From NCBI GenBank assembly GCA_051294375.1, contig CM119271.1, positions 2,246,677 through 2,310,676 of the forward strand: DNA of 64,000 nt, read 5' to 3'. Under the pieces are notes generated by a model. It was not told the origin of the DNA, searched no databases, and saw only the letters and a list, made by a program, of their open reading frames with translations. Origin of the DNA: Paraspadella gotoi. Its lineage: Eukaryota > Animalia > Chaetognatha. The stretch's first letter is position 1. Each line of letters opens with the position of its first letter. Of the stretch, positions 1 through 64,000 are shown one piece after another. A program made the position numbers and the translations under genes.

Positions 1-3000
1 AATCCCAAACGACGGCGTCGGCGCGCGAGTCGGAGCGGGAGTCGGAGCGGGAGTCGGCGACGCGAAATTTGTGGAAGGTGGAGGACATGCGCTTTTCTAT
101 GAGAAAAGGGATTCGGGGGGGGGGAAAGGATAATTGGTCAAACAGGGTCCCAGGGTCCCTGCAGGACTCGTTAAGATCCAACGGCAACAACCACCAACCC
201 AAAAAGTTGAGCGCCTCCGTTTTCTTCCCCGTCGAACTGAGCAGCTTGGCCCGTTCCATGGGAAACTCGAGCAGATCGTAGGCGCGGGCCGAGTTGAGGG
301 CGACGAAGGATGCCTGGTAGTGGCCCGAGAGCCGAGCCGACCTGGCCAACCGCAGCCAGGTCTGTCCGATCTCCTGCTCCACTCGGCGTCGAAGCTCGGG
401 CGAGGTCGCCTTCCCGCTCACCAAAGAGAAGAGGGCGCGGCGGAATGTGAGGAGACAGTCGTGATGACGGTAGGAAGGTTGGACGAGGTCGAAGCGCGAG
501 GAGAGATGAGAGAGAGCGGATTCGAGGCTGGAAGAGAGAGATTCGGCGGGTGAATCCCGAGGAAAGATGAATTGGTCCGCGATGAATTCCATCTCGTTGA
601 GAGCCTGGTGAGAATAGGTTCAATGAAGTACAATCATCTAATTTGCATATTGCGGTAGTGGCCGTTAAAGCTGAGATTCGTTACAAAAAAATTTTAAATA
701 AATTTTTATAAAAATTTAATTCATTTTTAAATACGGGCTCTTATGCAAAATGATCTTTGTCAAGAGTGGCTCTTAACAACAAAAGAAACAATTTTTCATC
801 AACTCAAAGGGAAAAACTTCGCAAAATTTTCGTTTTACTTGATTAGGAAAAACTAAATCGACAGGCCAAAATTCCCTAATGCATTCACATTCACAACCCC
901 TTTCGACACGGTTTACCCTGTTAATTATATAAATTGGAATCTCCGTCCACACTTCATCACCTGCAGCTTCACGACGTGCTGATACCCGCTGTTGTAAGAT
1001 CCCGTTTCCATGGCGGCGACGGAGAGCGGCCCGATCTCAGCCAGGCGCGCCGCCATTAAGTTCGCCTCGAACTCGTCACGGTCCTCCGACTGAAGAGCCG
1101 CGAAAATTTTGCCAAGATTGAACTCGAATTTGGCGGCGACGGGCGCCGCCGTCGCAGCCGCTGCAGAGCCGGAGAGGACGCCGCCGTCGTGTCCTTCCTT
1201 TATCCGCCGACGGTCGACGTCGAGGAAATTAGCCAGGTTGTCCCATTGACCCAACTTCCAGGCGCACTCTATTCGGGTGGCCATAAGATCGGGCTCCCAA
1301 TCGGGGCGTTTGGCGACGAGTCCTTCCACCTAAAGTATGCGGGGGAAGAAGTTCATTCAGGAAACGATTCGCCACGACCACAACCCCCCCCCCTACCTGA
1401 GATAAGACCGAGGACAACTGGCCCATCTTAACGAAGCAGCGGAGGAGGCCGAGTTGAAGGCGGACGTCGAGGGGTTGGGCGGCGATGGCGTCTTCGTAGC
1501 AGACGGAGGCGTCCAGGTGATTCCCTCCGCTCTCGAAGACGTAGATTCGGTCCATGAGAGAGAGCTCGCTTTGGCGGATTTGGTCAAGGCCCTAAATGGA
1601 TTACGGGGAAATTAGTGACGCCACTGAACAATGGCCAATGCGAAAGAAGCTTTTAGCAATATATTCGAGAGTTATTTAATCGCAAACATCGGCAAAAAAA
1701 AACAAAAACCACGACTGAAATCTTAATGTCAACCATGACTTAGCAAATTCCGCTCATCAATTATTTCACCTGAACCCCGTCGGGTTCGTCGAGACTAGAA
1801 TAAATCCTGAGCAGAAATCCAAGGTCCTCGTGCCTCTTGCTCATATTATAGACGGGACCCAACCAGTGGATGTGCTCCTCGAAGTACATCAGCGCCCTCG
1901 TCGGCGAGTTAGACGCCAGTGCTGCTTTGGCAATAAGATCCTGACGGTTGACCCCCCAAAAAAAGTTTAGAACAAAAAAAAAAAAAAACACGGAACGTCA
2001 GAAAAATTCTTGCCTTGGGTATTCTTCTGAAAAAGCTCTCGACCGAGCGGTAGGCCCGATCCGTCTTGTGCGACCCACCGCCGCCGCCCTTCCCGAAGGC
2101 CCCCTGCGACGCCGTCAGCTCCTCCAGTCGAAAGTTCTGCCAAGCGCGGACGTAGTCGAGCACGCGGAACACCGTCTGCGCCGCGAGGGAGCGCAAGTCC
2201 TTCTTCGAATTGGAGGCGGAAGCGAGGGCGTCGCGGGAGGCCGTGCGGGAGAGGAGGTTCCGATCGGACGGCGCCGAGTGCGGGGGCGAGGAGGCGTCGC
2301 CGGAAGTCACGTCGGTGAGGATGGCTTTTATCTCGTCGCTTTTTTTGGTTTTGAGGAGGGGGGGATTAATCAATAATCAATACAATCCAAACATCGAGCC
2401 AATCAATAAAATTTTGACAACACCGGATAACTTTTCCGAAATTCCGAAATACCCACCCGATTTCCGACAAAACCGCTTCTACCCCGCCCAACAGGCAGTG
2501 CAGCACCAACGATGGCAGAAAGAATATGGCGCACTCCAATCTCGCCGACAGAAGTACGGAGCAGGGTTCGAAGAGACGAAAAGCCGTCGTACCTCGATCC
2601 AGGTTGTGGTGGATCATCTTGAAGGCCCAGTTGCAGATCCAGGAGCGGAAGGAAGAGCCCAGGCGACTCCCGTACATTGGCGTGAGGCGGAAAGACTTGC
2701 TGTCGATGTGAGCGGTTTGGGTATAGCAGGACTTTTCGTGATTTCTAAGAACCTGGTTTAGAAAATGCGTTTTAACAATTTGCTGGTCAGCATCCTGCTG
2801 GTCGACATCCTCTCCGACCTCCTGAGCGTCCGGCGAAAAGGCCTTCCACATTTCTGTCCAATTCTTCGATCCCAGTTTCGTCATGACTTTGATCATCTCT
2901 TGGATTGCGTAAGCGGCTCGATCTTGCATCATGGTGTCCTCGGCTACGGAGTAAGCCTGCACCAACTCGTTCATGAAGGCGATCTTGAGAATGGATGAGA

Positions 3001-6000
3001 TTTTGTGATTTGAAATATCTCATTTAGCGTAGTAAATCCGTAATCCGCCAATAATATCGTGTACGTCGTTTAAAACTTGAATATTCGCCAAATGCAGGAA
3101 CCGTTTGTCGCTTTTCCTCAGCTAAGGCCATTCCCTGCACCACCAAAAAACCTTCTTACTTGCACGTCGGGCTCCTTGACGGAGTAGACGTTCTTTGGGA
3201 GATCATGAAGCCTCTTTCCCTTGGAGGAAAACTCGTCGTTGTGGAGGTCGAGCTTGCCCGGGTCGATGGCGCCCAGCTCCCCCAGGCACTTGGCCAGGCC
3301 CAGGCGGATCTGGCGGTCGGAGCTCGCCTGCATGGACGGAGAGAGAGAGAGAGAGATTGAGCGAAAGGTTATAAGAAATAATGAGTCGTGACGGGAATCG
3401 GAAGAGCAAGACGTCGCGAAACTGGTTTGCATGATATAGTAGAAGAAAAACGAGGATTGAGAGGAATAAATCAAATAATTTTTTTTAGAATAATCAACGA
3501 TGAAAAATATTATATTTGTAGTCAAAGTTACTTGGGCTATTGCGTTGACAACTTTTATCTTACAGTGGTTGCAATATTGATTAAATTAACTTTTTCGTTT
3601 TCGTTTTCGTTTTTTTTTAGACTCGAACCTGACACCCGTTGTGCAGAGTAGAGACAAGTCTCGACACGACAGGATCGGCGACCTCATTTCCGGTCACCAA
3701 GAACCGAATTTCCTGACGGCGTCTGACTAATAGACCGTGCAGTTGGTTGAGCGTCTGGACACGGACGTCTTTGTTCTCGTGGGACACGCCTTTGAAAAGG
3801 TGGGGAGGGTTGTGTGGTATTTTATAGAAAAAGATAAGCCGAATTCTTAATACTTAAAACAGTCTTAGTATTTCCTTTTCAGAATATCTTGAAATAAGAA
3901 CATGATCCACCCGACAAGTTAATCGCTAACTTTCTTTTAATGTTAGAAGAATTTGATATATATCGCTCAAAATTTGAGTCAAATTAATTGAGGTTTTAAT
4001 AAAAGGGAAGCTCACCAATTTCTTTTTCGACTTTTCTTTTAGAAAATTGAAATTGATCTTGGATTCAAACAATGATGAGGCGTGAATTTATCTCGAGGGA
4101 AAAAAAGGAAAAGATCGATTTTCTTACACCATCTGTTTTCTGCGCGAGATAAAAAAACGTCGAATGATTCGATGATGTAAGTTTCTTTTCACTAGATACA
4201 GAAACATCAAAAGCTGAAACTATTTTTTAATTTAAAATTGAACGTCTGTTGTAATCAAAGTAAGTCAACTAATTAAAATTAGGCTATTTATATATTAAAA
4301 GCTGAAAATTTAAAAACTCTTTCAGCTCGTCCATTTTTTCTTTCCTCAAAAATAGGCCGATAAATACGGAAAAAAATTTTTCTGAAAGCTCAGAAAACAA
4401 GAATTTCGACTGGAAAAAGTTGTTAGAAAAAAAATGAACCTCGCCGATCTAATACGAGCCAACAATCCGCGGGAGTAAGTTAATGATTAAGTAGTACGAC
4501 CAGAAAAGAGAAATGAATTTAATCGACAGATCCGTCCTTTTCAATTGGCAGCAATCCACCGCCGAAACCCAGAGCCAAACCAGTCAATAAGGTAACTTAA
4601 ACTTGACAATGTATATATTTATTAATTAACGACATTTAAAAAAAGTGACCCGTTCTGCAGTTTGCCATCGATGCCGACGCGGAGGAAAAAGTGGTGCGTT
4701 GGATCGCGGCTCTGACGGGGGATTCCAAGGGCGACCGCGAGTCACTGGCCAACTTCCTCCACGACGGCGTGGTTCTGTGCAACGCGATCAACCGGCTCGT
4801 TCCCGGTGCCGTTAAAAAGATCGGCAGGTGAAGGAAATTGGAAAGCGATTGATTTTAAATTCCTTATATATATAAATATATATAACTATAAGCGATTTTA
4901 AATTGCTTATAATTCCTCAGGAAAGGAGAGCCCGCCGCTTTGGAAAATATTAACGCGTTCAGAAAAGCCGTCAAGGTAAATTTTCATCACTGGTTGCATA
5001 TATCATAATCGGCAATACAAGTTATATATAACCGGATCCAAGGATTACGGCGTTCCTGAAACTAAAGTATTTCTTCCGGACGATTTGTTCAAGAGACAAA
5101 ACATGAACGAGGTCGTGAAAACTCTCGTCGCGCTGGCGAATCAGGTTAGGGGAGGGAAAAGTGTGAATGTCGTGACTACATGGACGTAATACCAATATTA
5201 AATAAGACCGTCCATCATCGCCGTCATAGTGCATTGGGCTAAGCCGCTAACGCTTCATCTATGAACCCGATGGTCCCGGGTCCTAGCCCTGGTCGGAATG
5301 GCTTATGCGAAAAAGTCACGGGCAGGTTAAGCCACTGGTAGCAAGCCTACATCCAGATCCAAAGTTTCGGAAAAGGCAACTGACCCAGACCAACTGGGCA
5401 TACTAGATGATGGGAATCTCGATCAATTCACTTTTTTCGTTAGGCGGAAAAACATCCAGAATACGACGGACCTCCCTTCAAGTAAACGTCGGAGTTTCGA
5501 GAAAAAAATTTCAATCAATTTTCGGTTATTTTTTTTTTTCGCAAGAATTTGAAAACAATTTTCTTTTTTTTTCCTGAAATGTGATAATGGATTATCATAA
5601 TACGCAACATTTGCAATATGACTATTATGAGTAAACGCAATAAATAACTTTCGGAATTAACGACCAATTTATCTTTTTTTTGGCAAATTCCTCACAAAAA
5701 CTTTCTTTCAATCAATTACTTTTGGTCCCCAACAGCCGTCCTCTCTCTTTTCTCTCTCTCTCTCACCCTTGAGCAGTTTTGAGATCTCCGCTTCGATCCC
5801 TTCCCCATCTCCCTTGGCCCGACGGACGCTCTCCTTGACTTCCTCGTCGAGTTCGCATTCGGTCAGAAAGTAGAGTTCGCCCATCGTCTCCGCGAAAGCG
5901 TCCGCGTTCTCCACGAGGAGAAAATGGTAGATGGCGCCCACCTCCTTGGGGTCGGGGTGTCGGCGCAGCAGCGGCAGCAGGTGGGTCGTGACCTCGACCA

Positions 6001-9000
6001 GGATCTTGGCTAAGTCCTGGAGGCGAACGTTGCGGACGAAAGTGTTCCAGGCGTGGACGAGAACAAGGAGGGTGCGTTTTTGATGAGCGGAGGCCAGACC
6101 GTTTTTTAACATGGTCATGAGTTTGACGCGGTGGGCTGCGAGGAAGATGGAACGAGTGGGAGGGAAGGGGGAAATGGATGTCTTGTTGCGTTATGTTCAC
6201 TCTCTTTAGGGTGTGTCACTCATTGGCGCATTCAAAGACTCACGCGTGATGTGTTTGGGTCCCACGAGTTCAACGATGTTGGTGAGGCTCTCAAAAACCT
6301 CCCTCTTAGCTTCCTCAAGCACGTCGGCCCTCTTGATGAGGCTGTCGAAGAAGGTGAAGGTGCCGAGGAGGTTGGGACCCAAGTACTCGGTGAGATCCTC
6401 GTCGGTGATGGTTCGACCCGCCCACTCGCGCTTCTCGTTGGCCATCAGAACGCGGAGCCCCGAGAAGACTTGTTTGCCGTGAGAGCAGATGCGGATGAGA
6501 AGTAGGTTTCTGCAGGATTGGTAAGGAGTCTTTCGTTGTTACACATTTCAATTCCATGAAATAATGTACGTCATTTCTCATAATCACTTGTAAATATAAG
6601 TTGTAGTACTAGTAGTAACGAAAAATGCTTGCTGCAGATGAAGCTCGGGTTGTAATATACGAGGAATAGAAGACACCTCAATAGTTTTTTTTTCAATCAT
6701 CACCCTAATCTCATTTGCATATGGCAGAATTTTTCACCATCACTTGAGGAAATCAGAGCTCTTTAGTCAAAGTCAACTTTAAAAACATGTGAACAAAATT
6801 TGATGATTCTGTTTTTATTCACCTGGTAGTTTTTAGCCGGATCTCAAAAAACTATTGTTTTTTGAACAAAATTGTTATAATGTAGTCCGTAAAATCAATT
6901 GCAAATAGTGTCATCTTCAAGAGCGGAAAAAATACTATATTTTAGATACCTTATTTATATAATTTTATACAATACTTTATTTATATTAATTTTTAAAGAT
7001 TAAAATTATGTGAATTTTTAAGTAATTTTTTAATTAATCCTAAATAACAATTTAAATAACAATTTAATCCTAAATAAAAATTTTTGTTAGAATTTTAAAA
7101 TTTCTAACCGCTACTGTTACAAAAATATGATTTCTGACCTAAATTTATAAATAATATTAATAAATCATTAATTGAGTTTATATTTGGTAGCAACGTAAGA
7201 TACTTTAAAACCTTTGATATTTATATGCAACATACAACAAACAAAATAATAATAAACTATTTCGCTGTTTGATTATGCTTTTTTATATTAAATGTAAAGT
7301 TAAGCTACTTTAATTAATTATTAATAAATTAGTAATTAATTAATTATTAATTATTTTTTAATTATTAATTTATTAATTAATTTTGTGATTGAGAGACGAG
7401 ACAAAGTGGAATACGATTTTGACATGAATTAAAAAAAAATAATAAATTAATTAATTCATTCATTATTTATCTGATCAGCTGCTTACCGCTAATTATCGTG
7501 AGCACATCCGGTATTGTTTGCTCAAACTTGTAAAAATATCAAGGAAGAAAACTTAGTAGATAGTTGGCTATATTGGAGCTATAAATGCTGTTTTATACAA
7601 TCGCATTGGCTTGTCCTTCTAAAGGGATATTTTATGAGCTAAGCTTTTATAAATGAAGGAGACGGAATCGTGAAGAGGAATCTCCAAAAACTCTGATCTT
7701 TCCGACATGTGATATTCATATTTATATTCATTGATATTCACTGTTCATTCATTACTTGTTCCCTTTCAGTTCTGTGAGCATCGTGTTTATCATCATAGAA
7801 AGTACGTGTTCGAGTGCGAGTCCTACTCCAGTTGGAGTCCACGTTCTCTTGTGTATTCATATTCACAGATCCTATACTGTGGGCAACCTTGTGGTCGACC
7901 GTGCCGCCGTGTGGTTAACTGACATTGTAGTCTACACGTTAGAGGGTCTCGTGCTTCTCAAGCCCGGCCGGTGCCCGCCGGCATCGCCCACAACAATCAC
8001 CCTCTAACATAAAAAGTGATAAAAATAAGTTTGCGAGAGTAAAACGTAAACTATACCTAAAATTATCTTTTTACAATCCACCTCAAACATATTTGCAACT
8101 TAAAAGTTTTTAAAGGTACCCACTCCAAATTCGATAGGCCTGAAAACGCGTATATCCAAATCTATATATCAATATATCGAATTATATTTCTCGCCTGATT
8201 TGCGCGACGTTCATGAGTATAAAGCTGGTGAGTTCGATCTCCGTCGTGGTGGCGATGTAGTTGAGAATGCTGCCCACGTTCTTCTCCTCCTCCTCTTCCT
8301 CCTCGTTAAGGATCAAGTAGGAGAAGATGTGCTTGAAGTTGTTGATGATAATCTCCTTCTTGCCGAAGAGGCCGAGGAGTTTGGCCAATTGTTGGAGGAC
8401 GACAAGGGACGCCTCGTCCCCTTTGTGCTTGATCAAACGGGGGACGAGGAATTTCTGAAAAAGGTGTGGGTAGAACTAGTTAAACTAATAATAAATTGAA
8501 GAATATTTTAAGAACTAGTAGCATAGTTTAGTTCAATAATTAGTTTTTTTCTAAAACCACAACTCAAACTGAAGCTAAGGTGGCCCACTGGACAGTAAAG
8601 TAAAAACACAATGATGTAACGCGATTATAGGTCGCTATTTGCTATAACTGAAACGGTAAATGACCTTGGCCGTGAGCGACGTTTTCCTTCTCTCATTTTT
8701 CTCGAATACCACGATTCTTGCTATTAGTAAATCGTCTTAACTCGATTCTCTGAATCCGCTTAAGACGACGACGACGTTTCCTATTGAAACAACTCTCATA
8801 ACTCATCTACTAGTCGTATAATTTCAACGTAAATACAACCGACTTCAAACCCAAAACGTTGAGAAGGCAATGGAAACCACGTATCGCAATCGATATGATA
8901 AAATTACGAAGCAAGAGGAAAATGTACACATTCCCAATCCAAAAATCTTCTCAACCGCACTTCGTTTCGACCTACCTTCGTTTAAAAGCTTCCCAAGTAA

Positions 9001-12000
9001 AATCTGTCGATGACATTTTAGAATATCTAGAGCCATCGTCTCCAAATACGGCATTTTGCACTTTGAAAATCTTAACATTCTTTTTAAAAATCAATCAAGT
9101 AGCACCGTTGTTTCTACAACCGCATGAAGGATTCGATTCCCAAAATCGGCGATAGACAAAAATCGATTAACGAAAACGAAAACCGGATTGTGGCCTCGAT
9201 ATAACCTTGACAATCTCCATTTCTTCGATCCGATTTACCGGTTTTTTCGTAACCGAAAAGATTCATTCGTCGCGATCGATCGAAAAAAAGATGAACCTGA
9301 TTCTGTCTGACGAAGGCGTCGCCCGCGGGAAAACCCAAGGCCGTGGCGAAGGCGTGGAGTCGCTGGAGAACTTCGTCCCCGACGCTCCTGAAAGAAAAAC
9401 GGGGACGACGCTTTGTTACATGACCATTTGATTTGTCCCTTTTGGCTACCACAACCCGATTCTGTCTGTCTTTGCGTCTCTCTTTCTCTTGTTCTTTCCT
9501 TCCAAATATAACCATTTGTGACTCGAGATCGTCATCACAACCCTCTCACCCGGAACTCACTTCAAAACTGTGTTGTCCATGGCGGATTTATTGGCCGAAG
9601 CGTCGACGAGCTGCTCGGCGCCCGAGTTCTCCACCTTGACGAAGTTGTATAGGAGTTCGATGAGAAGATGACATAAGGATTCTTGGTGGCGGCGAAATGC
9701 CGCTCGAGACGCCTCCTTGTCCCGACCTGACAAAATTCCAAAGACCACTATTTTGTTTTCGTCCTGAAAATAATAATACCATTTTCTTTGGAGTACATTT
9801 CCTTTTTTTTTTGGTTTTCATACGTAATTGATTGTAGAGCGTGTTTTTCAAGTTCATCGTAAATATCAGGGTCACGATCGAATGTTTTTTGACCGAAAGA
9901 TTAACGAGGTTCGACGGAAGAAAAAAAAGAGAAAACCAAGACGAAAACCAGTTTCTCGACTTCCCACCCCTCCCTCACGGTGCCTCAGACTTCCAGGGAA
10001 AAAAAATTTCCAAATCGAGTGAAAAAAGTCATGTCATCGATTTCGATTTTGATAGGTTAACTGATAAGTAGTAGGTCTTGCGTACGGAGGAAGTAGAGTG
10101 CAATAACCTGGAGGTCTTTTTGAAAAATCAGGTAGTGTGTAGGAGATAGGCGTACGGAGGAAGTAGAGGGCGTTAACCTGGAGGTCTTTTTGAAAAATCA
10201 GGCAGTGTGTAGGAGATAGGCGGACGGAGGAAGTAGAGGGCGTTACCCTGGAGGTTTTTTTGTAAAATCAGGCAGTGTGTCCCGCCCACCTGGATTCTCA
10301 CCAAAGGCTTCGTCGAGGCAATTGAGGGCGCCGGCGGCGACTTCTGGCTCTTTGGTTAAAGTCAGAGTCGACAATAGGATCTTAAGGATCCCGCGTGGAG
10401 GACCCCCTGGGTAGGCGGCCCCGTACTTGGCGGCGGAATGGAGGATGGTGGCGAGAACATCGGGATCGCTGAATTGGGAATGGGTGGGAAAAATGAAAGA
10501 CGATGCCAAAAAAAAATCAATTAAAAAGTCGGCTTAACTTACCTGAACTGAGTTTTAGCCGCCTTTTCGAGCGCTGCGACGACAGGATCGATCAACTTAG
10601 GATCAGAGAAATATTCGTCATGGGCGAATCTAGTCGGGGGAAAAAAAAGTTTGAGGAAACAATGTCGGATCTGCGTACGATAATTAAGCGGAAATAACCT
10701 AATCTGATGATAAATCATGGTAATTTTTTATGACTTTAAATTTGTGATCTTAACAGATCAAAAATCTTAAAAGTATAGTGATCTCGCCAGACGTTACTGT
10801 AAAAGAAAATAAATGAAAAAATCCGAAAAAAACCGAATGATTGATGCGATAACGAATTATTGATGTAAAAGTAATTGATTGATGTAATTGTAATTGATTG
10901 ATTGATGTAATAATAATTGATTATTTATACGATGATAATTTCAATTAAAACTTATCCATCCAATTTTTAATAAATATAATAAATATGAGAAAATATAAGT
11001 AAAAATGCTGACAGTAAATATGACTTCTTTTTTTTTTTCATTTAAACTCATTTCCACTCGCAAGATCCGACTAAAAACCAGTTTACTGAATATAATTGAA
11101 AAAAAATGCAAAAAAAAAAGTACAAATCAACCAAAAAAATACTCACCCGTTTCCAGTTCCCTTTTTCACAACCACCCGCGCCAAAAGCCTCGGAACCGTC
11201 GCCACCGCCGCCAGCAAATACGCCACCCCGTCGCGGACGCCGCGGTCCGGATCGATGAGGAGCGCGAGAGACGCGTTCAGCGCCCAATCGAGTTGTCCCG
11301 CGACGCGCACGTGGGCGAAGACGCGACGAAGGGCTCGAACGAAGCCGAGACGAGTTACCGGCGACGGAGATTGAGAAAGAAGAGATAAAAGGTTCGATCC
11401 ATTTCAAGTCGTGACGAAGGAGACGGGGGGCGTGGCCGAAAGACGAGTCGTCGTCGTCTCTGCCTTCGACGTCGCAAACGGAGCAACGGATCCGCGACTC
11501 GACGAACCCGTCATCGGTCAATCGCATCTCCGGACGAGCGCGTTCGGCAAAGACGCAGACGACAGAGCCGAAAACGTCCGGCAGACGCTCGGCGAATTCC
11601 GGCGGCGCGTCGGTGGCGCCGAGCAGAGGCGTCAAAAGCGACGCGATGACGTATTTTCTAAAGGCGTCGGGGGCGCCGTGCATGAGGAGGGGGAAAGATT
11701 CGAGGGCGGCGATGGAGGAGTCGGGCGAGCGAAGGCTACGGTGAAAGACCTCTCGGCGGAGATCGAGGTAATCAGTTTTAGGCACGAGAGAGAGGAGAGA
11801 AAGGGACGCGCGGAGATGACGGGGAGACAGGGGAGAGGATATGGCTGGAATGAAAAAAGGTAATTTAAAGATGAATATTACATCGGCACTAAACAAATAC
11901 ATAAATACGTACTTTGTGAAAACTGATAAACGGGTCCTTCGAATTCCTTATCCATAGGAACTTTAGACTTGATCTTTTTGATCCAAGGCACGAGAAGAAT

Positions 12001-15000
12001 CCGCGCCATGGTGAGCAGAGAGCCGCGAGAAGGGAACGTCGCGGAATCGTCGGCAGAGGATGAGAAAGAGGAGGAGGGAACGAGGAGGAGTCCGATGGAT
12101 TTGAGTACGAGGCTAAGAAAATGGATCGTTTAACAGTTAGTTCCGTTGAAAAAAAAAAAAAACTTTTCTTTACGCCCCCTCTGGGCCCCGCTCTCACCCA
12201 AACATCTCGTCGGGGATCTGAGCATCGATCGATTCGCTCTGCGACGCCATCGACGACATCAACTCCAAGAAAGACGTCAAGAGAGAGGAGACGACAGAGT
12301 CGGAGATCCAAAGCTTCAGCGAAGTTTCGGCCGCAGCTTGCGACGCCGACCGTCTCGATAGGCGGTCGACGCAGGCGGCGACGACGCCGAGGACGACGTT
12401 GATAGCGAGAATGTGGCGGCGAAGAGCGACGAATGTCTCTGTGGCGTCCGACGCGGGAGAACGAAGTCCGTCAACGAGACTTAATAATTTGTGGATCTTG
12501 GTGGAGGGGAAAAAAAAAACAAATGAATTTGTTAGCCCATTTTCTTATTAAAAAAATTTTTAAAAAACGCTCACTTGATCCTGCAGCTTGTGATAAAGCT
12601 TTTCATAAAGCGGCGAAGCGGTCGCGTTGAGTGGAACGCCACCTTGAGTGATCCGCGAGGATTGGGTGGCGTCCGACTCGGTCAAAACAGTCGCGAACGG
12701 GACGGTCAAGGTTTCCGTTATCGTGAGCGACATGAAGGGAATTAAATAGCTGGAGGAAAGAAGTCGAGTCTCAGAGCGAATGAGAATTATCGGGATAAGA
12801 TTACTTCACTTTAATTACATTCTCATGTTTTGAATTAAGCGTTTATTATTAATTAATTAAAAATACTTACTATTCCTATCTTGTTAAATATCCATTATCC
12901 AATTAGGTATCAAATTTTGTATCATAACGTCTAGTATTTTTGATTTAAGTTTAAAACAAGACTACAACATTAGTTAAATTTTATTCTTATTCGTTTCTCT
13001 TACTATACAGAAGGCTTCATATTATAAAATGTGGTACTGTGGCGGTATATTCAAACCGCTTCACGTCCACCATCCTTCAGCCAAATACTTTGGCTCAGAG
13101 GGGGAACACATCATCCCAGGCGTAGTGTTCCATCCACAGTTCTAACGACTTCCCTCTGCGTTGGCAAAGCGAGACCGTCCTAAGGTAACCGCGCCAGTGA
13201 CTGGAGGCGTCACTGAGGGTCGGAAGCCCCCAAAGCCAACAGTGAGATGCCCCATCCCAATGGGCATTACAGGCAACCCAGCTGTTGCCATAAGTGGTGA
13301 GCCCTACTATCGAACACGCAACCTTCTCAGGGTACGCTACGACAAACGCCTATGCCCTGCCGACTTCGGGTACGCTACGACAAACGCCTATGCCCCCACT
13401 CTCCCACTATGGTAACAGTCTTGTCAGACACCTCTCAGGCTTGAAGAACCTGAGTGATGTCTTGGCCCGGGGATCCTGTGGCGGTATATTCATACCGCCT
13501 CACGTCCACCATCCTTAAGCCAAATACTTTGGCTCACAGGGGGAACACACCATCCCAGGCGTAGTGTTCCATCCACAGTTCTAACGACTTCCCTCTGCAT
13601 TGGCAAAGCGAGACCGTCCTAGGGTAACCGCGCCAGTGACTGGAGGCGTCACTGAGGGTCGGAAGCCCCCAAAGCCAACATTGAGATGCCCCATCCCAAT
13701 GGGCATTACAGGCAACCCGGCTGTTGCCATAGTACCCCTTTTTTGTGACCAGAAACTGTTCCCACCAAACTACCCGATCGAATTTAATGAAATTTTACAT
13801 TTAGAGTGCTAATGACTATATAAATGGAACTATCGAGGCGAATTTTGATATTCAACCCCTGACAAGAGATACAGGGCCCTGGGGGTGGTTCATCGTTTTA
13901 CTTCCAATTAAACTGCTGATGTTCATGAAGCTAAAAATTAAGGTAAATGAATATTTTTGAAACGTCTGTGCAACTGTTCAAAACAAAAATAATTTAAAAA
14001 ATTTGAAAATTTAAAACCATTTTTTTGCCCCCATGGGGGCCCATATCTAGGTTCAGCGGTCAAATATTGAAATTCGCCTCAATAGTTTTATTAGTATTCA
14101 CATAGGGATCATTCATTCCAAATTTCAATAAATTTGGTCCAGTAGTTTTCTTGGAACGAGTTCTGGTCACAAAAAAGGGGTACCTCATTTTATAATATGA
14201 AGCCTTCTGTATATCAGAGAATATGATTTAAAAATTCCTCTGTGTGGCGTTAGGTCATATTGTTATTAATTCATAAAACAGAAAAATAACAATAAATATT
14301 CAATAATTACGTAAGTTATGGCAACAGCTGGATTGCCTGTGATGCTCATTGGGATGGGGCATCTCACTGTTGGCTTGCCCCCTAACATAGAGGCTTCCGA
14401 CCCTTAGTGGCGCCTCCTGTCACTGCCGCGGTTACCCTTGTATGGTCTCGATTTGCCAACACAGAGGTCGTTAGGACTGTGGATGGAACCTAACGCTTGG
14501 GATGGTGCGTTCCCCCTGTGAGCCAATGGGATTGGCTGAACGATGGTGGATATGAGGCGGTGTGTATATGTAGTCGGGCATTGCCTAGGTTCACCCCGCC
14601 TATAAGCATGACACCTTCAGTCCTGACCCGGTGGCTCATTGAGTAAAGCCATCAGCTCATGACCACTAGGTACCGGGTTCAATCCCAACCTGGTACCTAC
14701 CCTGCGGGAAGCGTGAGGACGGCCGTAAGCCGCCTTGGGGGCGTGGCAACCTCTCAAGCCTGGTTCCAAGCCCAGGACCCGTTCCATGGCTACTAAAGGG
14801 GGTTATAGAAGTTACGGATAGTCATCTTCAGCCCACTTAGCGCCTTATCCACATATATACCGCCACAACGTGTCGTTTTTGAGTCATTGTAATTCACAGT
14901 AATATTTTGCGATCAATAATCCAACCCTCGCCACCTTTTCAATCGCCCACTTACACACCTCGCCCCATCCTTGTCCGAGTTGACGCATTTTGCCAAAAAT

Positions 15001-16406: not shown

Positions 16407-16867
16407 TTCCTCGTCCTACCGCAACAGTCGGAGAGCTTCTTTGAAACGATTTCCGAGAAATCGAGAGGAAGCGAGGCTTCTCGCCATCGCTAAAAAAATA
16501 AGTTATCACAGTGGCTACTGAAAAACATGAACAAAATTATCACAGATAATTGCGTCGTGCAAATTAGAGAAGAATAATCGCAAAAAACGGAGTAAATATT
16601 TTCTATTTCCAACCCCCCCCCACAAAAAAAAACGAGTCAGTTGCCTCAGTTTTATACGCATTGGTTGCCTGTTACATTCACCAACTCTCACGCTTAAAAC
16701 CTAAAGAAATCAAAACAAGAATTTTTCAAAAATTTTCATAGTTTAATAAAACACTAGGCAACGCAGTAAAGAAAAAAAAAACGAGAGAAATCACAAAGGC
16801 GACAATTTTTCCCTCCCGCTTCATGCGAGGACAAATTCCGCGGATTGCCTTTCCGATTCCAGCCCTA

Positions 16868-24864: not shown

Positions 24865-24917
<53 letters not shown>

Positions 24918-50400: not shown

Positions 50401-51024
50401 CGCGACGAGCTTTTGTCGTTGTTTGCTACGTTGAGTTGCGATCTTTCGTTTGACTTTAATCCGAGTGGATGACTTGCTATCGTCGTCGTTTTTGCTGTCG
50501 ATTTCGCCGACGTCTTTTTTTTCGACGTCCTTTCGGCCTTCATCAATGTCCTCGAAATTGTTTCGCGACATCTTCATGTACTTTCGAACCACGGCGGGCA
50601 GGTTGGCGTGTCGCTTTCTCGAGGGTCTTGAGAGATCGTCGATCTGTTCGGCTCCCTCCTTCGATTTGACGGCCTTCGCCGTATCCTCGGCAGAATCGAC
50701 GCCTTCGACGGCGCGATCGAAGATGCCCTTCTTAACATCCGGACGCAAAACGGATTCAAAATCCAATAGGCCACTCGAGGAAAGTCTTTTGCCAGCCTCC
50801 GACTTTTCCTTCTCCGCCTCCCTCGTCACCCCCTTCGTCCGCGGTCCCTCCTTCTTTAGATCCCGCAGCAGCTCGTCGAGGTGCGCTGAGGCGAAGGGAG
50901 ACGCTCGCTGCTCGCGACTTTCAAGGGGGTCGCATGAGACGTCCGTTCTGGAGGAGGATGAGGAGGAGGTCAAGGAGGAGTTGGAGCTGGGAGTTTTGGA
51001 ACTCTTCTTCTTTTTCGACTTCAT
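47484..51024 (-). CDS. Large uncharacterised low-complexity protein (3 exons)
   Basis: Long ORFs at 49348-51039, 48613-49092 and 47484-48536 can be joined by GT-AG introns. No family recognised, and the 5' end is uncertain. Confidence 0.6.
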
Positions 51025-52298: not shown

Positions 52299-53222
52299 TC
52301 ACTTGGCCGGAATAACCTCGTCAAGGAAAGTTTTTAAATCCCTGATCTCCTCCTCGGAAGAGTGGTGGCCCATGGCCGAATACTCGTGGAACCGGTGCTT
52401 GCCGTTGAGCTTGGCCAAAGCTCCCGCCGTCAGCTTGCCCCATTGGAACGGGACGATGGGGTCTGCCTTGCCGTGACACTGGATGATCGGGGTCGATAGG
52501 TTTGAACGGGCCGCCTCGGGAAACCGCTTGTGCAGAGGGAGCCAGGTAGAGAGGAGCACCACCCCGCCGATTCGGAGGTCCATGGTGAGCGAGGCGAAGA
52601 CGGCAGCGGCGCCGCCCTGCGAAAATCCACCCACGACAATGCGCTCGGCGGGAACGCCGGCCGCGATCTCGGCGTCGACGAGCGACTTGAGGGCGACGGC
52701 GGCGCGTTCGATGCCGGCCGCGTCCTCTTCAGTGCCGGGATCTAAGCCACGGATGTCGAACCAAGAGGGCATCTGATGAGGAAGATAGAAGATTTGTTAG
52801 GGGGCGAATTTTACAGATTTTACCTGAAATTTTTTTCATCTTCAGCTCTACACTTCCTCAAATTAGCTAAGTCTCCTCACTACCTAAATTGTCAAAATCT
52901 CATTTCCATTTTCAAATCGAATTGAATGGAACAATCTTTCCATTGTCTTCATTTTTTCAATTCTCTACAGTTCACACTCCGCCGTCACCGCCCCCCCCCC
53001 TTTCCCCTCAATTCTTTTCCACACCTGAAACCCTCCGTTGAGCGTGACGGGTTGAGCAGGAGCCGTAGGGCAAACGAATTTGACATGACCCAAGCCAAGT
53101 TTGCCGAAGGTGACCGACCACTGTTGCCCCGTATCGCCGAGGCCATGAAAAAAGATCATAGTGGCGCTGTGATTTGTCGTAGGGTCAATTGTGAACACCC
53201 GACCAAATTCCAGAGTCGACAT
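52299..53222 (-). CDS. LYPLA1: Acyl-protein thioesterase (lysophospholipase 1/2 family)
   Basis: IFFHGLGDTG, CPTAPAQPVTLNGG..MPSWFDI, GGFSQGG, QCHGKADPIVP and MGHHSS. Confidence 0.94.
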
Positions 53223-53755: not shown

Positions 53756-54733
53756 CTACTTCTTGAAGGAAACCTGCAAGGGTTTCCCGCCCATCATGTA
53801 TCCGTCGAGCTGCCGAATGGCGAAGTTGGCCTCGTCGTGGTTGACCATGGTGACGAAGCCGTAGCCCTTGCCTTTACCCGAGGGGCCTTCCTTGATGACG
53901 TTAACCTTGGAGACCGCGCCGAAGGGCGAGAAGAGGGAGTAGAGGAGACTCTCGTCCGCGTCGGGTCCGATGTTGTAGACGAAGAGGATGAAGCCCCCGC
54001 CGTTTTGCGCGGCGGGGTCAGCGTGATGTTCGGCGATGCGTTGTTGGCGCCTTGCTGCGTCGGGTTGAACCGGTACTGGCCGTGAATCCGCCGGATCGGC
54101 CCCGCCAGTGGCGGCGCCTCCGCTTCCGCCACCGCGATGAACGCCCATTCCCGGATAGGCGCCGTAGAATGCGCCGGCGCCCGCTGGGGCGGCGTGCGCG
54201 GCCGGCGCCGTGCCGAGAGATCGGTCGTTGTCGTCCTTTGCCTTTTTGACGGTGATCAACTGGGTGGCGCCCTCGGGTTGCGTTCCGTTCAAGGAAACCA
54301 TGGCGGCGTCGGCTTCTGTCTTTTTCGCAAAAAGAACAAACCCGCAGCCTTGTGGTGAAAAAAAAAAAACAAAAAAAACAAAAAACATATTTTTCTCCTC
54401 TAAGGCCGCCGTCGCGGGGTTCATAGTTTTTTTTTGTGCGTGAGGGGGTATTCAAATCCACAACGCAGTGAGAGATCGGTCGATTTCACCGTGCTGACGA
54501 AAAAAGGGGCGAACGAAAAACGCAAATAAAAAGTAAAGAAAAACCAGAGCTTATAAAAAAAAAAAAAAAAACTTCAAAAACAAAAAAATCTTAATTTGAC
54601 GCGCGAGTAAAAAAAAGGAAAAAAAAACTTTCGGGATGACATGGGCAGAAGCTTCAATCTCGAACAAACTACTTCATCATGCTTTGCAACACCTTCCCAA
54701 AAAATTTTTTAAAAAATATTCAAATTCAATAGC

Positions 54734-54770
<37 letters not shown>

Positions 54771-54860
54771 GGGGAAGGGAAAACTAGGAATTCCCACGTC
54801 TGGGAATCTTCGACGTTTGTTTTGTCTCTCGAGAGATCTCTCACTCTATCACTCACTATC

Positions 54861-54920
<60 letters not shown>

Positions 54921-55563
54921 CTCTCTTCGCTCTCTCTCTCTCTCTCTCCTTATAATCTATTTTACCTTTGGACTGTCCGGTAAAATTGTCCATAAGTATC
55001 TTGACGTTGACGATTTCCCCGTACGGGCTGAACATGGCCTTGAGCCCGTCCTGGGAGATGGTCTTGGGCAAATTGGCGACGTAGAGATTGGCGCCTCGAA
55101 TCTCGTCCGTCGGAGGGCGCGCGTAGGCGACCTTGATGTACTTGTGCATGAGCTGGAGACCGTTGAGGGTGTCGATGGCTGTGAAATTGTGGGAGGGGAA
55201 CGAGTGTGGAGAGAAAAAAGCTTAAAAAAATGAAATAAGACAATGGATTGAATTTGTGAATTTATTTATTTATTTATTTGGGAAAAAGCATAAGAATAAA
55301 CATAGCCCGATATTAAAAGAACATGAAACTATCCCTTTTGTCTCTATATTAGTCGAAACTAAACCTTTGAGGGCGTCCTCCTCGTTTTGGTAGTTGACGA
55401 ATCCATAGCCGAAGCTATAGCCCGTCCGTTTGTCTCTCAAGATCCTGGAGGACTGTAAGGGTCCGATGGCGGAGAAGAGTTGGTTGAACTCCGCGTCTGA
55501 CAGAGTCTGAGGTAAGTAGTTTATTATGAGATTTGTCCTCGAATTGTCGATCCCCGTCGCCAT
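53756..55563 (-). CDS. ELAV/Hu/Sex-lethal family three-RRM RNA-binding protein
   Basis: RTNLIINYLPQ..GYSFGYGFVNY (RRM1), IKVAYARP..ANLYVANLP (RRM2) and ILFVYNIG..KGYGFVTMVNHDEA..LQVSFK (RRM3). Confidence 0.93.
54864..54947. repeat. (CT)n microsatellite in an ELAV-like intron
   Basis: Read directly from the sequence. Confidence 0.95.
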
Positions 55564-56061: not shown

Positions 56062-56791
56062 TCAAGAGGGCGGCTGCGGCTGCGGCGGGGCCGTCGCCCC
56101 AGGAGCGAGGACGGGAGCGGCGACCAGTTTCTTCTCCCGCTCCCTCTCGCGATCCTTGGCCGCCTCCCTCGCCAGCGCCTCCTTCTGCTTCTCCGATTGC
56201 AGCTTGAGCGCTCGACGCTTGAGCCGCGTGGTGCGTTCGTGCAGCGACGTCATGGAGCGGCGGATGTTGACGAGGCGTTCGTGATAGGATTTGACTCGAG
56301 ACATTCTCTGCCGGAGGCGATCGTTGCTTTGGCTGTCGTCGAATCTGCGCGTTGTGATAAAACGGTTGGGATAAAACGCCAATGAGATGGTAATGGAATT
56401 TTATTTATTGCGGTAATTAATTACGCCAATAAATAGAAAAAATACAATTTTTGAACAAATTTCCAAAATCGTTTCGTTTATTTCACCTTTGGTTTTCCAA
56501 TCGGATTCCATCGAGAACGGTCTCTTGCTTCCGCAACAGCTCGTCGAGAGATTTTTTCGATTTGTCGAGCGGCGGGAGGACGTGGGCCAACAGCCCGCGA
56601 CCGAGGCAGTCCGCGATTTCCTCTGGGGCGGTGGAAGGCAGAAGGGACGGTCGGGGTTCTGCAGGCGTTGTTGGTGAAATTGGGGAAGCGGGGAGATCGA
56701 GGGGAACGAAGGGGTCGTCGTCCGGACGAACGGTTTCGCGGTCAAACGGATTTTCGCGTTTGACGGGAGATCCGGGCGAAAAGGTCGCCAT
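56062..56791 (-). CDS. BLOC1S6: BLOC-1 subunit 6 (pallidin)
   Basis: GLLAHVLPPLDKSKKSLDELLRKQETVLDGIRLENQR / YHERLVNIRRSMTSLHERTTRLKRRALKLQSEKQKEAL..REREKKLVA. Confidence 0.9.
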
Positions 56792-57380: not shown

Positions 57381-60300
57381 TCATTTGGATCTTGAAATCA
57401 TCGGATACGAGATCAGATGCTGATTATTGTTGTTTCCTGACGACGCCGGACCGACTCGGCCGCCGGACGCCGCCGTCGGCGCTGGACCCCTCATCGGCGG
57501 GGGCGGCCGAATCGACGGCGGAGCCAGAGGAGGCGGGGGCCCACCGGGGCCTCCGCCGGTTCGCACCACCGCCCCGGGCGGCGGCCCCTGGTGCGTCCCC
57601 GACGAGGTCGATTGTATCTGCGAGTTCATCGTCGGCTGCTGTTGCTGCGGCAAAGTTTGTTGCTGCAACGTTCCCTGCTGTTGCAACGTCCCCGGCTGAG
57701 AGAGCGTTTTTCCGTTGAGCCCCACGGCGAGCGGGGCCCCGACGGAGGCGGCCATGGCGTGGTGGGACATCAACGGACCCATGGTCATGATAGAGTTTTG
57801 GGCGCCGAGCGAGGCGTGGGAGACCGAGCTTTGCGACAGCGCGGAAATACCGCCGAGGGAAACCGGAAGAGAGCAAGCGACGGTGATGGGGATCGGCGCC
57901 GTCGCTGACTGGTTTACCGCGCCGCCTGATTGGGTGCTCAGAATAAGTGCTTTGCCGCTCAGAGGAGCGGGCGGTGGGGGTGGCTGGGGCTGGGCGGCGG
58001 CGTTGCCTGGTGGGCCGATTGACTGCACCTGTTAGTGGAAGTTTGTTGTAAAGAACTAAGCAATAATTACTCACTAGTTAAACCTTACATCCTCCATGAT
58101 TTATACCTGACCCGTGGTACAGATGCTGTTTGTAATAGAGGGATAGGAAGTGGGGATTGAACCGGGTCCTCGGGATGAATTAAAGGATGCGATGGATTGA
58201 GAAAGGTTGCCCACGTTGGCCACCGACGCGGCGATGGTCGCCGAGACTTGGGCCGCCGCCGCTTGGGCCTGAGCTTGCGCTTGCGCCTGAGCTTGGGCCT
58301 GAGCTTGAACTTGGGCCGCTACTTGAGCCTGTTGAACCTGAGCGGCTACTTGGGCCTGCTGATGCGCGGCGACGTGAGCTTGTTGAACTTGCGCTGCCAC
58401 TTGTTGCGCCTGCTGAACCTGCGCCGCCACCTGCTGCGCTTGTTGCACCTGAGCCGCCACCTGCTGCGCTTGTTGGACTTGGGCAACGACCTGCGCTTGC
58501 TGAGCCACCTGCGCAGCAACTTGCGCCTGAAGGTTCTGCTGTATGTTGTTCGTGGTCAGCGGAGAGGAAATGTTTTGGCTACCAATACTAGTATTTAAAC
58601 TCTGCTGCGAGGCCGGGATGTTAGGCGCGTTGGGCGGCGGTACCGCCTGCGGAGGCGGGGGAAGTAGATTCCCTTGCAAATTGGCGGACATGGGCGGGGT
58701 GAGGCAACCGGTCATGTTGGAACCGAGGACGGAAGATGACGAGGCCATGGGCAAGGGGTTTTGCACGAGCGATGAAGAAGTCATCACTTGATTGCCGACG
58801 ATGGCCGCAGCTGCTAACGACTGAGTCATAGGCGGTGGCGGCTGTAGCGGAGGATTGGCCGTTAAAGAAGCTGTCGGCAGGTTCTGCGACATGATTGGCG
58901 CCATGGAACTGGGCAGGTTGGTGGCGGCCGCCAATTGAGTCTCGCCTTGCTGCTGCTGCAGCGTACGAGGCTGTTGCTGTTGTTGCTGGAGGCGGAAGCG
59001 GGCGTTCTGTTCGAGGAGAAACTCGTTGGTGGCCTGAAGGTCGGACACTTGCTTTTTCAGCTCCTCTACGCGTTTGCGGAGGAGGCGGTTCTCCGATTCG
59101 AGAAGTGACATATCTTCCTTGGCCGAGGCGCCCGGCGAGGCGCGGGAACCGAAGGTAGAAGCCGTCATTAACTGAAATTAATAACAAGATTTTCAAATTA
59201 CGCAGTAAAAATTCAGGAGGAGATACGTATATAAAGCGTTCGCACCGCTAAGAAAAGTAAATTCAAAACAGCTTATATTACCGTGTAAATAATCACGGAA
59301 AGACTCGTTTTCGTTTGTTCCAAGATTATTAAACTTTAATCTCATTTACATTTAGTGGTGATGGAGACGGAATCGTGAAGAGGAATCTCCAAAGACTCTG
59401 AACTTTCCGACATGTGATATTCATATTTATATTCATTGATATTCACTGTTCATTCATTACTTGTTCCCTTTCAGTTCTGTGAGCATCGTGTTTATTATCA
59501 TAGAAAGTACGTGTTCGAGTGTGAGTCCTAATCTAGTTGGCGTCCCCGTCTCTTGTGTATTCATATTCGCAGATCCTATACTGTGGGCAACATTGTGGTC
59601 GACCGTGCCGCCGTGTGGTTAACTGACATTGTAGTTCATACGTTAGAGGGTCTCGAGCTTCTCAAGCCCGGCCGGCGTCCGCCGGCATCGCCCACAACAA
59701 TCACCCTCTAACAGTGGTATCACAAAATAATTTTTAGGTCATATACGTATAAGTATACGTCTAGACGACAGACTAGAACGATGAACTTTCCCTATACGAA
59801 CCTGAGACCCGTGCGGAGAGTGCGAAGTTGACGTCAGCGCCGAGTTCATCAGCGTAGAGTGGGCGTTGACCGATTTAAAGTAGTTCTGCGTGGGCGAAGT
59901 AGAACTCCCGGCGTTGTAGTCGAGTTTGGGCCGCTTCCCGCCGCCGCCCTCGCTAAAACCGCCGGCGGAGCCGCCTCCCTTGGACGAACCGGCGTTGTTC
60001 CTCGTCGCCTGATTGGCGCAGGAGCTGAGAAGGGAATCATAGTAGTCGCGGGAGGATCCCCCGCCGTTGGTCGGCGAGGGGAGGTTGAAGGAGAAATCAT
60101 CGGACGGGGTGGATGGTCGACCCGGATCGTAGTTCTCTTGTGTTGGTGAGAGGGAGGATCTTGGGAAGAGAATGGGATTACAATAAAATAAATGTCAAAT
60201 CTATCTCTTCAATGAGGATTGAGGATAAAAGAATTTTCCCCATTTCAACAAAAATCTACGTCAAACTAAAAACAAACCTCGACCCAAGCATCCCTTCGTT

Positions 60301-61255
60301 GCCAAGCAACAAGTGATCGATCCTCCTGAGCCCGAATGGCCGCAAATCTTCATCGATGGAACCGCGCCCGAAACGTTTAAAGAACCCGTTGCTGGGACAA
60401 CCGCCGCCGCGGCGGGACTGGCCGCTCCCGCCGTCGTCCGCCTCGTTATGGTCGACGAGAACGGCGCCATCCACGATGCCGCTTCCTTCATCGTTATCGT
60501 CGCCGCCGTTGAAGGCGCTCGTTGGCACGTGGCGGAACTTGCAACGCTTTCCGCGACGGCAGTCGCCTAGAAAAGGTTTTTTTTTTCGTTGCTACATCGG
60601 AAAGCGGAGAACCAACTAAATTCCGTACCCTTGATGAAGTCCTTGCAAACGGGTATGTCGCCGGGCTCGACCACGTTGGAATAACCGATTATGGGGCCTA
60701 CGTCGGCAAACTTTTCCGGCATCCTCCCCGTCTGCCGGAAAATCTCCTCGTCGTCTTTGTTGCAGTGGACAAATTTGCAGTTGGGCCGATTGCATCTGGT
60801 GTTTTGAAAGTCGTGACAGAAGATGATGTCTTCGGCAGTCACGCGGGCAACTGGACGGTGACCGAAATAGAAATATGTTGAAATTTAAACTACGTAGCGC
60901 TATCCACGAATTGGCAAGACTAAATAGTAAATACTAAGCGCCCAGTGTTACAGCATTATGTACTCCCAACTTTTCCTTTCTTTCCTAGTCACACACCTTC
61001 GGATCCCCTCAGTCCGACGGGGTGCGAGAACCGACAATGTTTCTTTCTCTTGCACACGTTCCTCAAGTAATCGCGACACACATCCGTCGACTTTTCGTTC
61101 TTATTAACGACGGTGGCCGCGACGTTTTCGTCGTCATCGCGACGTCGCGGCGGCTCATCGTCCTTTCTTTCGTCGTTGGTCATGTCGCCGTCGTCGCCGC
61201 CGTCGTTAGAGACGCACTCCGCGATGTTGACGCCGTCTTCGGAGAATTTATTCAT
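57381..61255 (-). CDS. ZC3H10: Zinc finger CCCH domain protein 10
   Basis: Three CCCH fingers (VCRDYLRNVC, FCHDFQNTRC, VCKDFIKGDC), the coiled coil LLESENRLLRKRVEELKKQVSDLQATNEFLLEQNA, and a Q/A-rich tail. Confidence 0.92.
58260..58530 (-). repeat. Coding tandem repeats (30-bp QQAQQVAAQV units and QA dipeptides)
   Basis: Seen in the translation of ORF 58101-59168. Confidence 0.85.
59359..59713. mobile_element. Solo LTR, family C (copy 2, ZC3H10 intron)
   Basis: TG...CA termini and 4-bp TSD GTGG. Near-identical to 7654-8009. Confidence 0.87.
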
Positions 61256-61569: not shown

Positions 61570-62537
61570 TCATACAATCTCGTCGAACCCTTCCAACCGA
61601 TCCGTGACGATCCTCAACAACCTGTCCCGGTTCTCCTCTTGAAGCAAATAAAAATGTCCCCCGGGAAAGGAGAAATTCTCGAACTCCCTCGACGTCGTGA
61701 GTTCTCTGAAAGAGTCTTGATCGTGGGGGTTGTCCGCTTCGCCGTCGAGGCAGACGATCGGACAGGCCAGCCTCAGTTGGGTGAGGTCGTGATCGAAGGA
61801 ATAGGATTCGACGACGCCCAAGTCGCCGCGGAGAGCGCGGAGGTGGATGCGAAGGAATTCGTCGTTGTCGAGGATCTCTTTGGGTGTGCCGCCTTGGCCG
61901 ATCAACCAGGCCTTCAGGTCCGAGTCGCTCATTCCACTGTAGTTTCTAAAGATCGAGGAGTGGAAATCATTTTTGGAATTAGGATACTTGGTCATTGAAC
62001 AATTTGTAAGATTCCTTCAAATTTTCCAAGCCCCCAACCTCGTATTGAGATATTCCCTAAACTTTGGCGAGTTGGGCGCCGAGGCGCCGGAGACGAAAAG
62101 ATGGTCGGGTTCCAGTTTATGGCGCCGTTTTAAATACAACGCCGTCTCGACCGCTATGATTGAACCGAGAGAGTGACCGAAGAACGCTACGCGGCACCCG
62201 TCGAAGAAACCGCGCGAAACGATTCCTTGAAAGTTATGATGCGATCCGTTGAAAATTTATAAAGTGAGATTTGTTAATAGTATCCCCTACCATCTCCCTT
62301 TTACTCACCCTCCGCCACCTCCTCCACCAACTCGGCCCTCTCCGCGTAGTAGTCTTCCCCGAACCGATTTTCTCGCCCGCGGAGTCGAACGGCGAGGACT
62401 TCGAGGAATTCGGGCACGAGGCGGCCCCACCTCGCGTAGGCCGCCGTCCCGCCGCCGCTCCACGGGAAACAGATGAGGCGGCAAGTGGCGGCAGAGCCGC
62501 GCCGCGCTAGGCAACTGAATAAGGCTTCGTTGGACAT
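61570..62537 (-). CDS. OLAH: Type II thioesterase (S-acyl fatty acid synthase thioesterase, medium chain)
   Basis: [28 protein letters not shown] nucleophile motif, LFVSGASAP and FPGGHFYL. Confidence 0.88.
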
Positions 62538-63073: not shown

Positions 63074-64000
63074 TCAGCTTTTCCCTTTGCGACTCTTCGG
63101 CCTGACCGCTTGGTTCTCCTCGATAGCGCCCTCTTCGACGGGCGCCGGCGCCGTCGGAAGATCCTCGGGCGTCACCCCTTGGGCCGACAGTTCCATCAGT
63201 ACGTTGTCCAAGTAGTTGGAATCGGGGTAGCCGTGGCCGGTCCGGTTCGAGCCCCACTCGGTCTTGTGGTGGATCTCGTTCCAAGTGACGGTGTTGTCGA
63301 CGCCCGTGGTGGCGGACACGCCCACCGTGAAGGTCAAGCGACGCTCCCAGGAGAGGACGAGAAGTTTAAGGACGAGGCGCCCCTTGGCGTTGTTCGGGAG
63401 ATAACACTCGCGAGGGAAGCCGGTGGCTGTAAAAAGAGGGATTTAATTGTCGGTTCCTTGGTTTTTAGGCGATTAATATTAATATTAATATTAAAATAAT
63501 TGTTTCTTATCTTTTATTCTACGAATCGCGAGTGCGGGATGCAAACCTGCATAAGGCGTTCCTGGATTGGGATGCTCGGGACCCTGTATCCCCGGTTTAA
63601 TGTGGTAAACTATCGTGATTGTCCCATCGGAATCGTCGAAACTGAAAATAAGGGTGAATATCTAAAAATGATATTCTATGGTATAAGAACAACAACCCCT
63701 TCAGGCTCACCCGGGCACCGGATGCTTGGGATCAAGCCAGTAGTCCATGAATCCGAGCGGGCAATTGCCCCGCTTCTCTCCGTGGATGGTCTTGCAGGAT
63801 GGGCACTGGAGACTGGCGTCGAGGGTCCCGCTGCGGTACATTGCCACGAGGCATGCGCGGTGGAAGGCGTGACCGCATTTGGACAGACGGCTGACGGTCT
63901 CCCCGTCGAAGTCGTCCGAGAAGGACGAGAGAGACGCCAGGCGTTCCATGCAGATTGAGCATTCCGACTAAAGAGTGATAGGGCAAAAAAATTGAAGATA
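63074..64000 (-). CDS. DTX: Deltex E3 ubiquitin ligase, 3' part (RING-H2 and DTC domain)
   Basis: [55 protein letters not shown] and [25 protein letters not shown]. Confidence 0.94.

Follow-up and report, generated by a model that had tools for sequence, protein, structure and literature searches.

Operons of chaetognaths, described in Spadella cephaloptera (PMC2481426) and Paraspadella gotoi (PMC12460157), are the closest published counterparts of the locus analysed here, as they too contain unrelated housekeeping genes placed head to tail. In P. gotoi, reported operon junctions number 2,910 of 21,072, and the longest operon, delimited by a rule of under 250 bp, holds nine genes (PMC12460157). 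In S. cephaloptera, 3 nt separate an upstream 3' end from the downstream acceptor, and the chaetognath leaders given in Table 3 of the same paper all end in A (PMC2481426). By contrast, AG is the terminal dinucleotide of leaders in C. elegans, Ciona and Hydra (PMC7986045, Table 1). Ciona operons comprise up to seven genes (PMC7986045), and it has been proposed that the splice defines the upstream 3' end in this organism (PMC1488885). The nematode Pristionchus pacificus has a 14-gene maximum under a 3.5-kb rule (PMC4138322). Published animal operons are short, with 2-9 genes, or 14 if this loosest rule is applied. Directional gene clusters, in the literature searched, are those of trypanosomatids and dinoflagellates. 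This mostly open-access literature, which included PMC11067885, PMC12582326 and PMC10282587, yielded no account of an animal operon array with 20 genes on the same strand; such arrays, or parts of them, may be listed in the operon table of P. gotoi or the EST/BAC alignments of Spadella. The listing of bioRxiv 10.1101/2025.03.14.643333 contains no occurrence of "operons", and none of five gene names tried occurs in three published supplements.

The window, i.e., the whole 64-kb stretch of DNA that was analysed, carries 21 consecutive genes of unrelated function, all on the minus strand and head to tail, according to exon models with GT/GC-AG ends. They are listed below in their order along the array, followed by the one nested gene.

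63074..64000, minus strand: Deltex E3 ligase (DTX), 3' part, running off the window (RING and DTC families)
61570..62537, minus strand: thioesterase of 3 exons (PF00975), presumably OLAH/TesA-like
57381..61255, minus strand: CCCH zinc-finger protein (gene model and Pfam), which we take to be ZC3H10-like
56062..56791, minus strand: Pallidin/BLOC1S6-like protein (PF14712)
53756..55563, minus strand: three-RRM protein (RRM_1), presumably ELAV-like
52299..53222, minus strand: acyl-protein thioesterase, LYPLA (Pfam and homologue search)
47484..51024, minus strand: 1059-aa protein, between the two 1.2-kb spacers (gene model)
44185..46239, minus strand: CWF19-like 1, CWF19L1 (Pfam and homologue search)
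42643..43825, minus strand: TPD52 family protein (Pfam)
40192..42131, minus strand: diphosphomevalonate decarboxylase, MVD (gene model and Pfam)
35495..39914, minus strand: two-PHD protein (gene model and Pfam), which we take to be PHF12-like
34406..35375, minus strand: NDUFB11/ESSS subunit (PF10183, E 0.0012)
32126..34036, minus strand: 364-aa protein of 5 exons (gene model and codon test)
29951..31900, minus strand: protein assumed to be SSUH2-like (gene model; weak DnaJ zinc-finger match)
27520..28212, minus strand: RMP24/RPP21-like protein, a weak lead (Atlas score 0.91, recognition below 2300); transcribed
24005..27420, minus strand: gamma-tubulin complex component 4, TUBGCP4 (Pfam; 9 of 9 introns spliced in RNA)
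20857..23663, minus strand: serine-rich protein, presumably FAM122/PABIR-like (gene model and RNA; 3' UTR to at least 20299)
19004..20191, minus strand: serine dehydratase, SDS (Pfam and homologue search)
17890..18765, minus strand: coiled-coil protein, single exon (gene model, codon test and RNA)
16868..17669, minus strand: oligoribonuclease, REXO2 (RNase_T; RNA)
1..16406, minus strand: ATR kinase, 5' part, running off the window (UME, M-HEAT_ATR and FAT families; RNA)
4661..5150, plus strand: calponin-homology gene nested in an ATR intron, coding limits approximate (Pfam)

The count of 21 co-oriented genes given in the preliminary description is borne out by exon models, Pfam and a codon model. 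Diagnostic Pfam families were found on the minus strand in 15 of the 21 genes and weak families in two more (53 exon pieces scanned); of the remaining four, one has uncharacterised homologues, one is the weak RMP24/RPP21 lead, and two of the four are covered by RNA. In each of the 19 complete models, the annotated minus-strand frame received the top score under a leave-one-out codon model. The nested calponin-homology gene is the sole plus-strand gene found in the window. The array was also correctly described as running off the window at both ends: the DTX model is incomplete at 64000 and the ATR model at 1. The genes are intron-rich, with 83 introns of median length 108 nt.

Several of the names above should be read with care. 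The FAM122, SSUH2, ZC3H10, PHF12, ELAV and OLAH labels are our assumptions, based on sequence motifs. The FAM122-like protein matched neither a Pfam family nor a PDB entry, and the Pfam scan of the 364-aa protein returned no family. The multi-exon 1059-aa protein has four homologues, all uncharacterised (best E 5e-13), and no Pfam family in a profile scan of its exon pieces and of the protein; SPIDR, a guess as to its identity, received no support from either the Pfam or the homologue searches. Rfam and ARAGORN, run over the window, gave no RNA family or other match. ELAV-like genes are usually neural, and the presence of one in the array may be set against the reported depletion of nervous-system genes in chaetognath operons. 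In ATR the frame shifts within an exon near a T run (11380-11400), which is likely an assembly error, and a short upstream ORF (16487-16416) lies ahead of the likely start codon at 16406. One intronic repeat family (25912-26102, 30595-30782, 13037-13731 and 14316-14569), which may be a SINE, is abundant in RNA (depth above 5000 at 25889-26300); a second family occupies 7654-8009 and 59359-59713.

Named relatives of the encoded proteins are distant: identity is at most 60% for serine dehydratase and at most 42% for CWF19L1, whose best relatives are in fish, echinoderms and a hemichordate. The nearest relatives of LYPLA are ten environmental proteins (66-80% identity). In a tree of 47 rows (22 window or environmental rows plus 25 named or EukProt rows picked from 120 listed), which contains named proteins of neither chaetognaths, tunicates, ctenophores, nematodes nor flatworms, LYPLA belongs to a starred 18-row clade of environmental proteins with two subgroups, separate from the molluscs, arthropods, annelids, hemichordates and cnidarians included. 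One source label of these environmental relatives is, we assume, that of a marine eukaryote catalogue. A metagenome scan with one protein of the window returned ten loci that are not close kin (41-63% identity), and the 3' motif of chaetognath leaders was found in none of the ten. The CpG observed/expected ratio in coding sequence is 1.26, which fits the reported absence of gene-body methylation in P. gotoi (PMC12460157). The animal is likely a chaetognath, a lineage in which operons are known: this placement is by exclusion, the matches including no named chaetognath protein, and by indirect signs, namely the methylation pattern, an apparent leader ending in A and a near-zero intercistronic distance (see below).

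The 20 stop-to-ATG spacers measure 99-1738 nt (median 415 nt), and 17 of them are no longer than 665 nt, so that close spacing accompanies shared orientation across 21 genes. All seven lengths quoted earlier (99, 119, 220, 225, 238, 277 and 314 bp) agree exactly with the present models. The accompanying statement that many spacers look too short for a 3' UTR plus a promoter, however, passed over the longer ones, three of which exceed 1.2 kb: 1738 nt (with a transposon inside), 1274 nt (51025-52298) and 1244 nt (46240-47483). The last two contain no transposon detectable by the terminal-repeat and duplication test that identified the following element in the first.

28238..29344, strand not assigned: 1107-bp non-autonomous DNA transposon (terminal repeats and target duplication), holding a 10-N gap

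This element, presumably hAT-like, has 10-bp terminal repeats (9 of 10 positions matching) and an 8-bp target duplication with identical copies at 29345-29352 and 28230-28237. Between it and the start codon of the RMP24-like gene the distance is 26 nt. Without it the 1738-nt spacer shrinks to 623 nt and the largest spacer of the array becomes that of 1274 nt. The gap inside it (28635-28644) is the only N run in the window, and a placeholder within a repeated element raises the question of whether arrays of 14 and 7 genes were fused by an assembly join that inflates the run. We consider this very improbable. Terminal repeats and identical duplications are found, correctly oriented, on either side of the gap, a signature matched in 2 of 500 shuffles, and since they are in register the scaffold join is likely real.

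With the transposon subtracted, a 700-nt spacer threshold divides the array into blocks of 6, 1 and 14 genes, every spacer of the 14-gene block being 665 nt or shorter. A 500-nt threshold gives blocks of 1, 2, 2, 1, 1, 2, 5, 3 and 4 genes. Against a published chaetognath maximum of nine genes under 250 bp, the present locus has 21 or more genes of one orientation, and the spacers of its 14-gene block reach up to 665 nt.

How surprising such a run is depends on scale. The chance of 2^-20 (about 1e-6) calculated earlier is correct for one window, but in a genome of 21,072 genes lacking operons and with independent orientation 0.02 such runs are expected; if operon junctions occur at the rate published for P. 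gotoi and are taken as independent, the figure is about 0.27. The run is therefore unexpected in a genome lacking operons, and even where operons exist it lies in the tail of the distribution. This argues against a compact genome with a promoter for each gene, which would leave 20 same-strand junctions unexplained, even though compaction without operons is known in Dimorphilus (PMC7854359).

It is also at this point that the opposite extreme has to be weighed, namely that the whole array of at least 21 genes is a single transcription unit within trypanosome-like directional clusters with promoters only at strand switches. Like trypanosomatid clusters, the locus is a long same-strand run of unrelated genes; the 64 kb without a strand switch, the open ends, the 1274-nt limit on transposon-free spacers and a run exceeding the 14 genes of P. 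pacificus under its 3.5-kb rule all speak for such a unit. Unlike those clusters, the array is intron-rich and includes an opposite-strand nested gene, which would require its own promoter. Moreover, the two transposon-free 1.2-kb spacers could hold promoters, three units would be co-oriented by chance in one of four cases (p 0.25), and the chaetognath studied has 18% of its genes in operons with a nine-gene maximum (PMC12460157). Taken together, these considerations make the single unit improbable in our opinion.

RNA evidence consists of contigs of one run from one study, aligned over 16001-28350, i.e., 7 of the 21 genes and 6 of the 20 junctions; two other RNA runs gave short repeat matches alone over this interval. 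Among the 15 splice joints listed of 20, 12 are GT-AG on the minus strand, one is a GC-AG model intron and two lie in repeats. Single contigs (contig depths are 87-118) cross three of the six junctions: RMP24-like/TUBGCP4 (99 nt), SDS/coiled-coil (238 nt) and coiled-coil/REXO2 (220 nt). It should be noted that a contig across two genes is not equivalent to one molecule, and that overlapping UTRs or some DNA would also produce it. Coverage is absent at about 20121-20298 (SDS exon 1), an uninformative stretch where reads are cut at a repeat.

The preliminary description had proposed looking for a common 5' leader. Two of the three visible contig 5' ends bear non-genomic letters after an AG and the third does not. 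The two acceptors concerned are the following.

23853..23854, minus strand: AG acceptor at the start of the FAM122-like contig, which has 18 non-genomic letters; inferred end of the TUBGCP4 contig
28237..28238, minus strand: AG acceptor of the RMP24-like contig, formed by the last base of the transposon and the first base of the target duplication

Alignment begins at 23852 for the FAM122-like contig and at 28236 for the RMP24-like contig; the 18 and 5 non-genomic 5' letters that precede these positions join exactly after AG, whereas only 4.2% of upstream positions directly follow an AG. The ATR contig starts on an AG itself (16518..16519, minus strand) with zero non-genomic letters. Would short cis first exons or contig-end noise account for the extra letters, as the reading with a promoter for each gene implies? 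The ATR contig, the shortness of a five-letter extension, and the donor-acceptor pairs that splice-site scoring found within several spacers are compatible with this. On the other hand, the spacer upstream of FAM122 contains no splice donor above 3 bits, and both extensions follow AG without ending in G: 71 of 83 cis donors have an exon ending in G, neither extended contig (23852, 28236) aligns onto a G, and the chance that two cis exons both lack the terminal G is about 0.02, an argument that presupposes full extension of the alignment by the tool. On the same presupposition, both of the two extended ends stop after AG, in disagreement with a nematode SL2-type leader ending in AG, while chaetognath leaders, which end in A, fit them. 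In our reading the extra letters, registered by their number, probably belong to a spliced leader. Loose ends of RNA contigs independently mark the transposon edge at 28238, and the transposon end covered by the alignment is multi-copy. A transposon-free allele as the source of the five letters on the RMP24-like contig was rejected, since its alignment would continue for another base and take in the G of the duplication.

Three sequence details near these 5' ends are recorded here. A T follows the AG at all three RNA-defined 5' positions (23852, 28236 and 16517) compared with 9 of 83 cis acceptors, a weak signal given that spacers are 38% T. A start-stop pair near 23760 lies ahead of the FAM122-like coding sequence. 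In addition, 5' UTR mini-exons of about 14 nt (46474-46487, before CWF19L1) and about 10 nt (about 42305-42314, before MVD) each directly follow a candidate acceptor and are succeeded by a cis intron.

After its inner exons are placed, the TUBGCP4 contig has 239 nt left, which by length arithmetic put its end precisely on the G of the FAM122 acceptor at 23853, provided that there is no unaligned tail. Depth agrees with this end: 86 is predicted and 102 seen for the bin (residual 15), against 59 for an end 100 nt earlier (residual 43), and neighbouring bins fit within 0-9. We infer that TUBGCP4 RNA terminates at the very AG that serves as the FAM122 acceptor, a zero intercistronic distance at one junction. 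Near-zero distances of this kind are known from chaetognath operons, and in Ciona operons and C. elegans SL1-type operons lacking intercistronic DNA the upstream 3' end is likewise the downstream acceptor (PMC1488885, PMC7986045). FAM122 RNA fills its 665-nt spacer except for the last 46 nt or less before the following candidate acceptor; for REXO2, RNA coverage comes to within 63 nt of where the ATR contig starts. Neither a 99-nt spacer nor a zero-distance junction has DNA to spare for a promoter, and this, with the extra letters, makes the compact genome with individual promoters and read-through or overlapping UTRs quite improbable.

In our opinion, the 21 genes are probably a chain of a few spliced-leader operons. 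In each, one upstream promoter would yield a polycistronic pre-mRNA; spliced-leader trans-splicing, directed to an AG shortly before each gene, would release single mRNAs, and cis splicing would remove the introns within cistrons. At TUBGCP4/FAM122 the trans-splice itself may also create the 3' end of the preceding mRNA, in line with the proposal for Ciona. Unit boundaries would fall in the two 1.2-kb spacers (51025-52298 and 46240-47483), which are likely promoter sites; the resulting blocks would comprise 6 or more, 1, and 14 or more genes and might contain promoters of their own inside. For the seven genes from RMP24-like to ATR there is support for operons whose messages are spliced at unpaired acceptors, and for the 14-gene block this organisation is plausible. 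Certain observations fit the chain less well: the ATR contig begins on AG without extra letters, a misfit for a leader ending in A; the RNA, contigs of one run, reaches 6 of 20 junctions; and many spacers have no strong acceptor, the best score under a cis-intron matrix being below 5 bits in 6 of 20, so that this matrix does not single out a clear trans-acceptor in every spacer. Of the possibilities raised in the preliminary description, the operon reading is supported for the seven-gene block and a chain fits best; the giant operon and the trypanosome-like cluster are less probable.

Other animal systems compare as follows. Ciona differs in its operon size of up to seven genes and in its 16-nt leader, whose terminal AG would let it align onto the acceptor (PMC7986045). 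Nematode operons (C. elegans SL2; P. pacificus, PMC4138322) resemble the locus in their collinear clusters and possible internal promoters, but differ in leaders ending in AG; their intercistronic gap of about 100 nt and SL2 specialisation were not seen here. The feature is of a known kind, spliced-leader-type operons, and its length is the surprising part.

A single polycistronic unit of 14 to more than 21 intron-rich genes, tolerating a 1.1-kb transposon between cistrons, is possible though doubtful. If it exists, housekeeping genes would lie in directional clusters far beyond the nine-gene chaetognath maximum, and fixed 250-bp operon rules would split such clusters, hiding a partly trypanosome-like animal genome. 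That distance rules can undercount operon length follows from the 665-nt stop-to-ATG spacer that is almost wholly 3' UTR. A transposon that supplies the acceptor between two cistrons is, moreover, a natural test of insertion tolerance in operons. Finally, an array of 21 or more genes prompts the question of what length an RNA polymerase II unit can attain in a metazoan when cis and trans splicing both act on its transcript, and of whether operons are grouped into larger domains of uniform strand.
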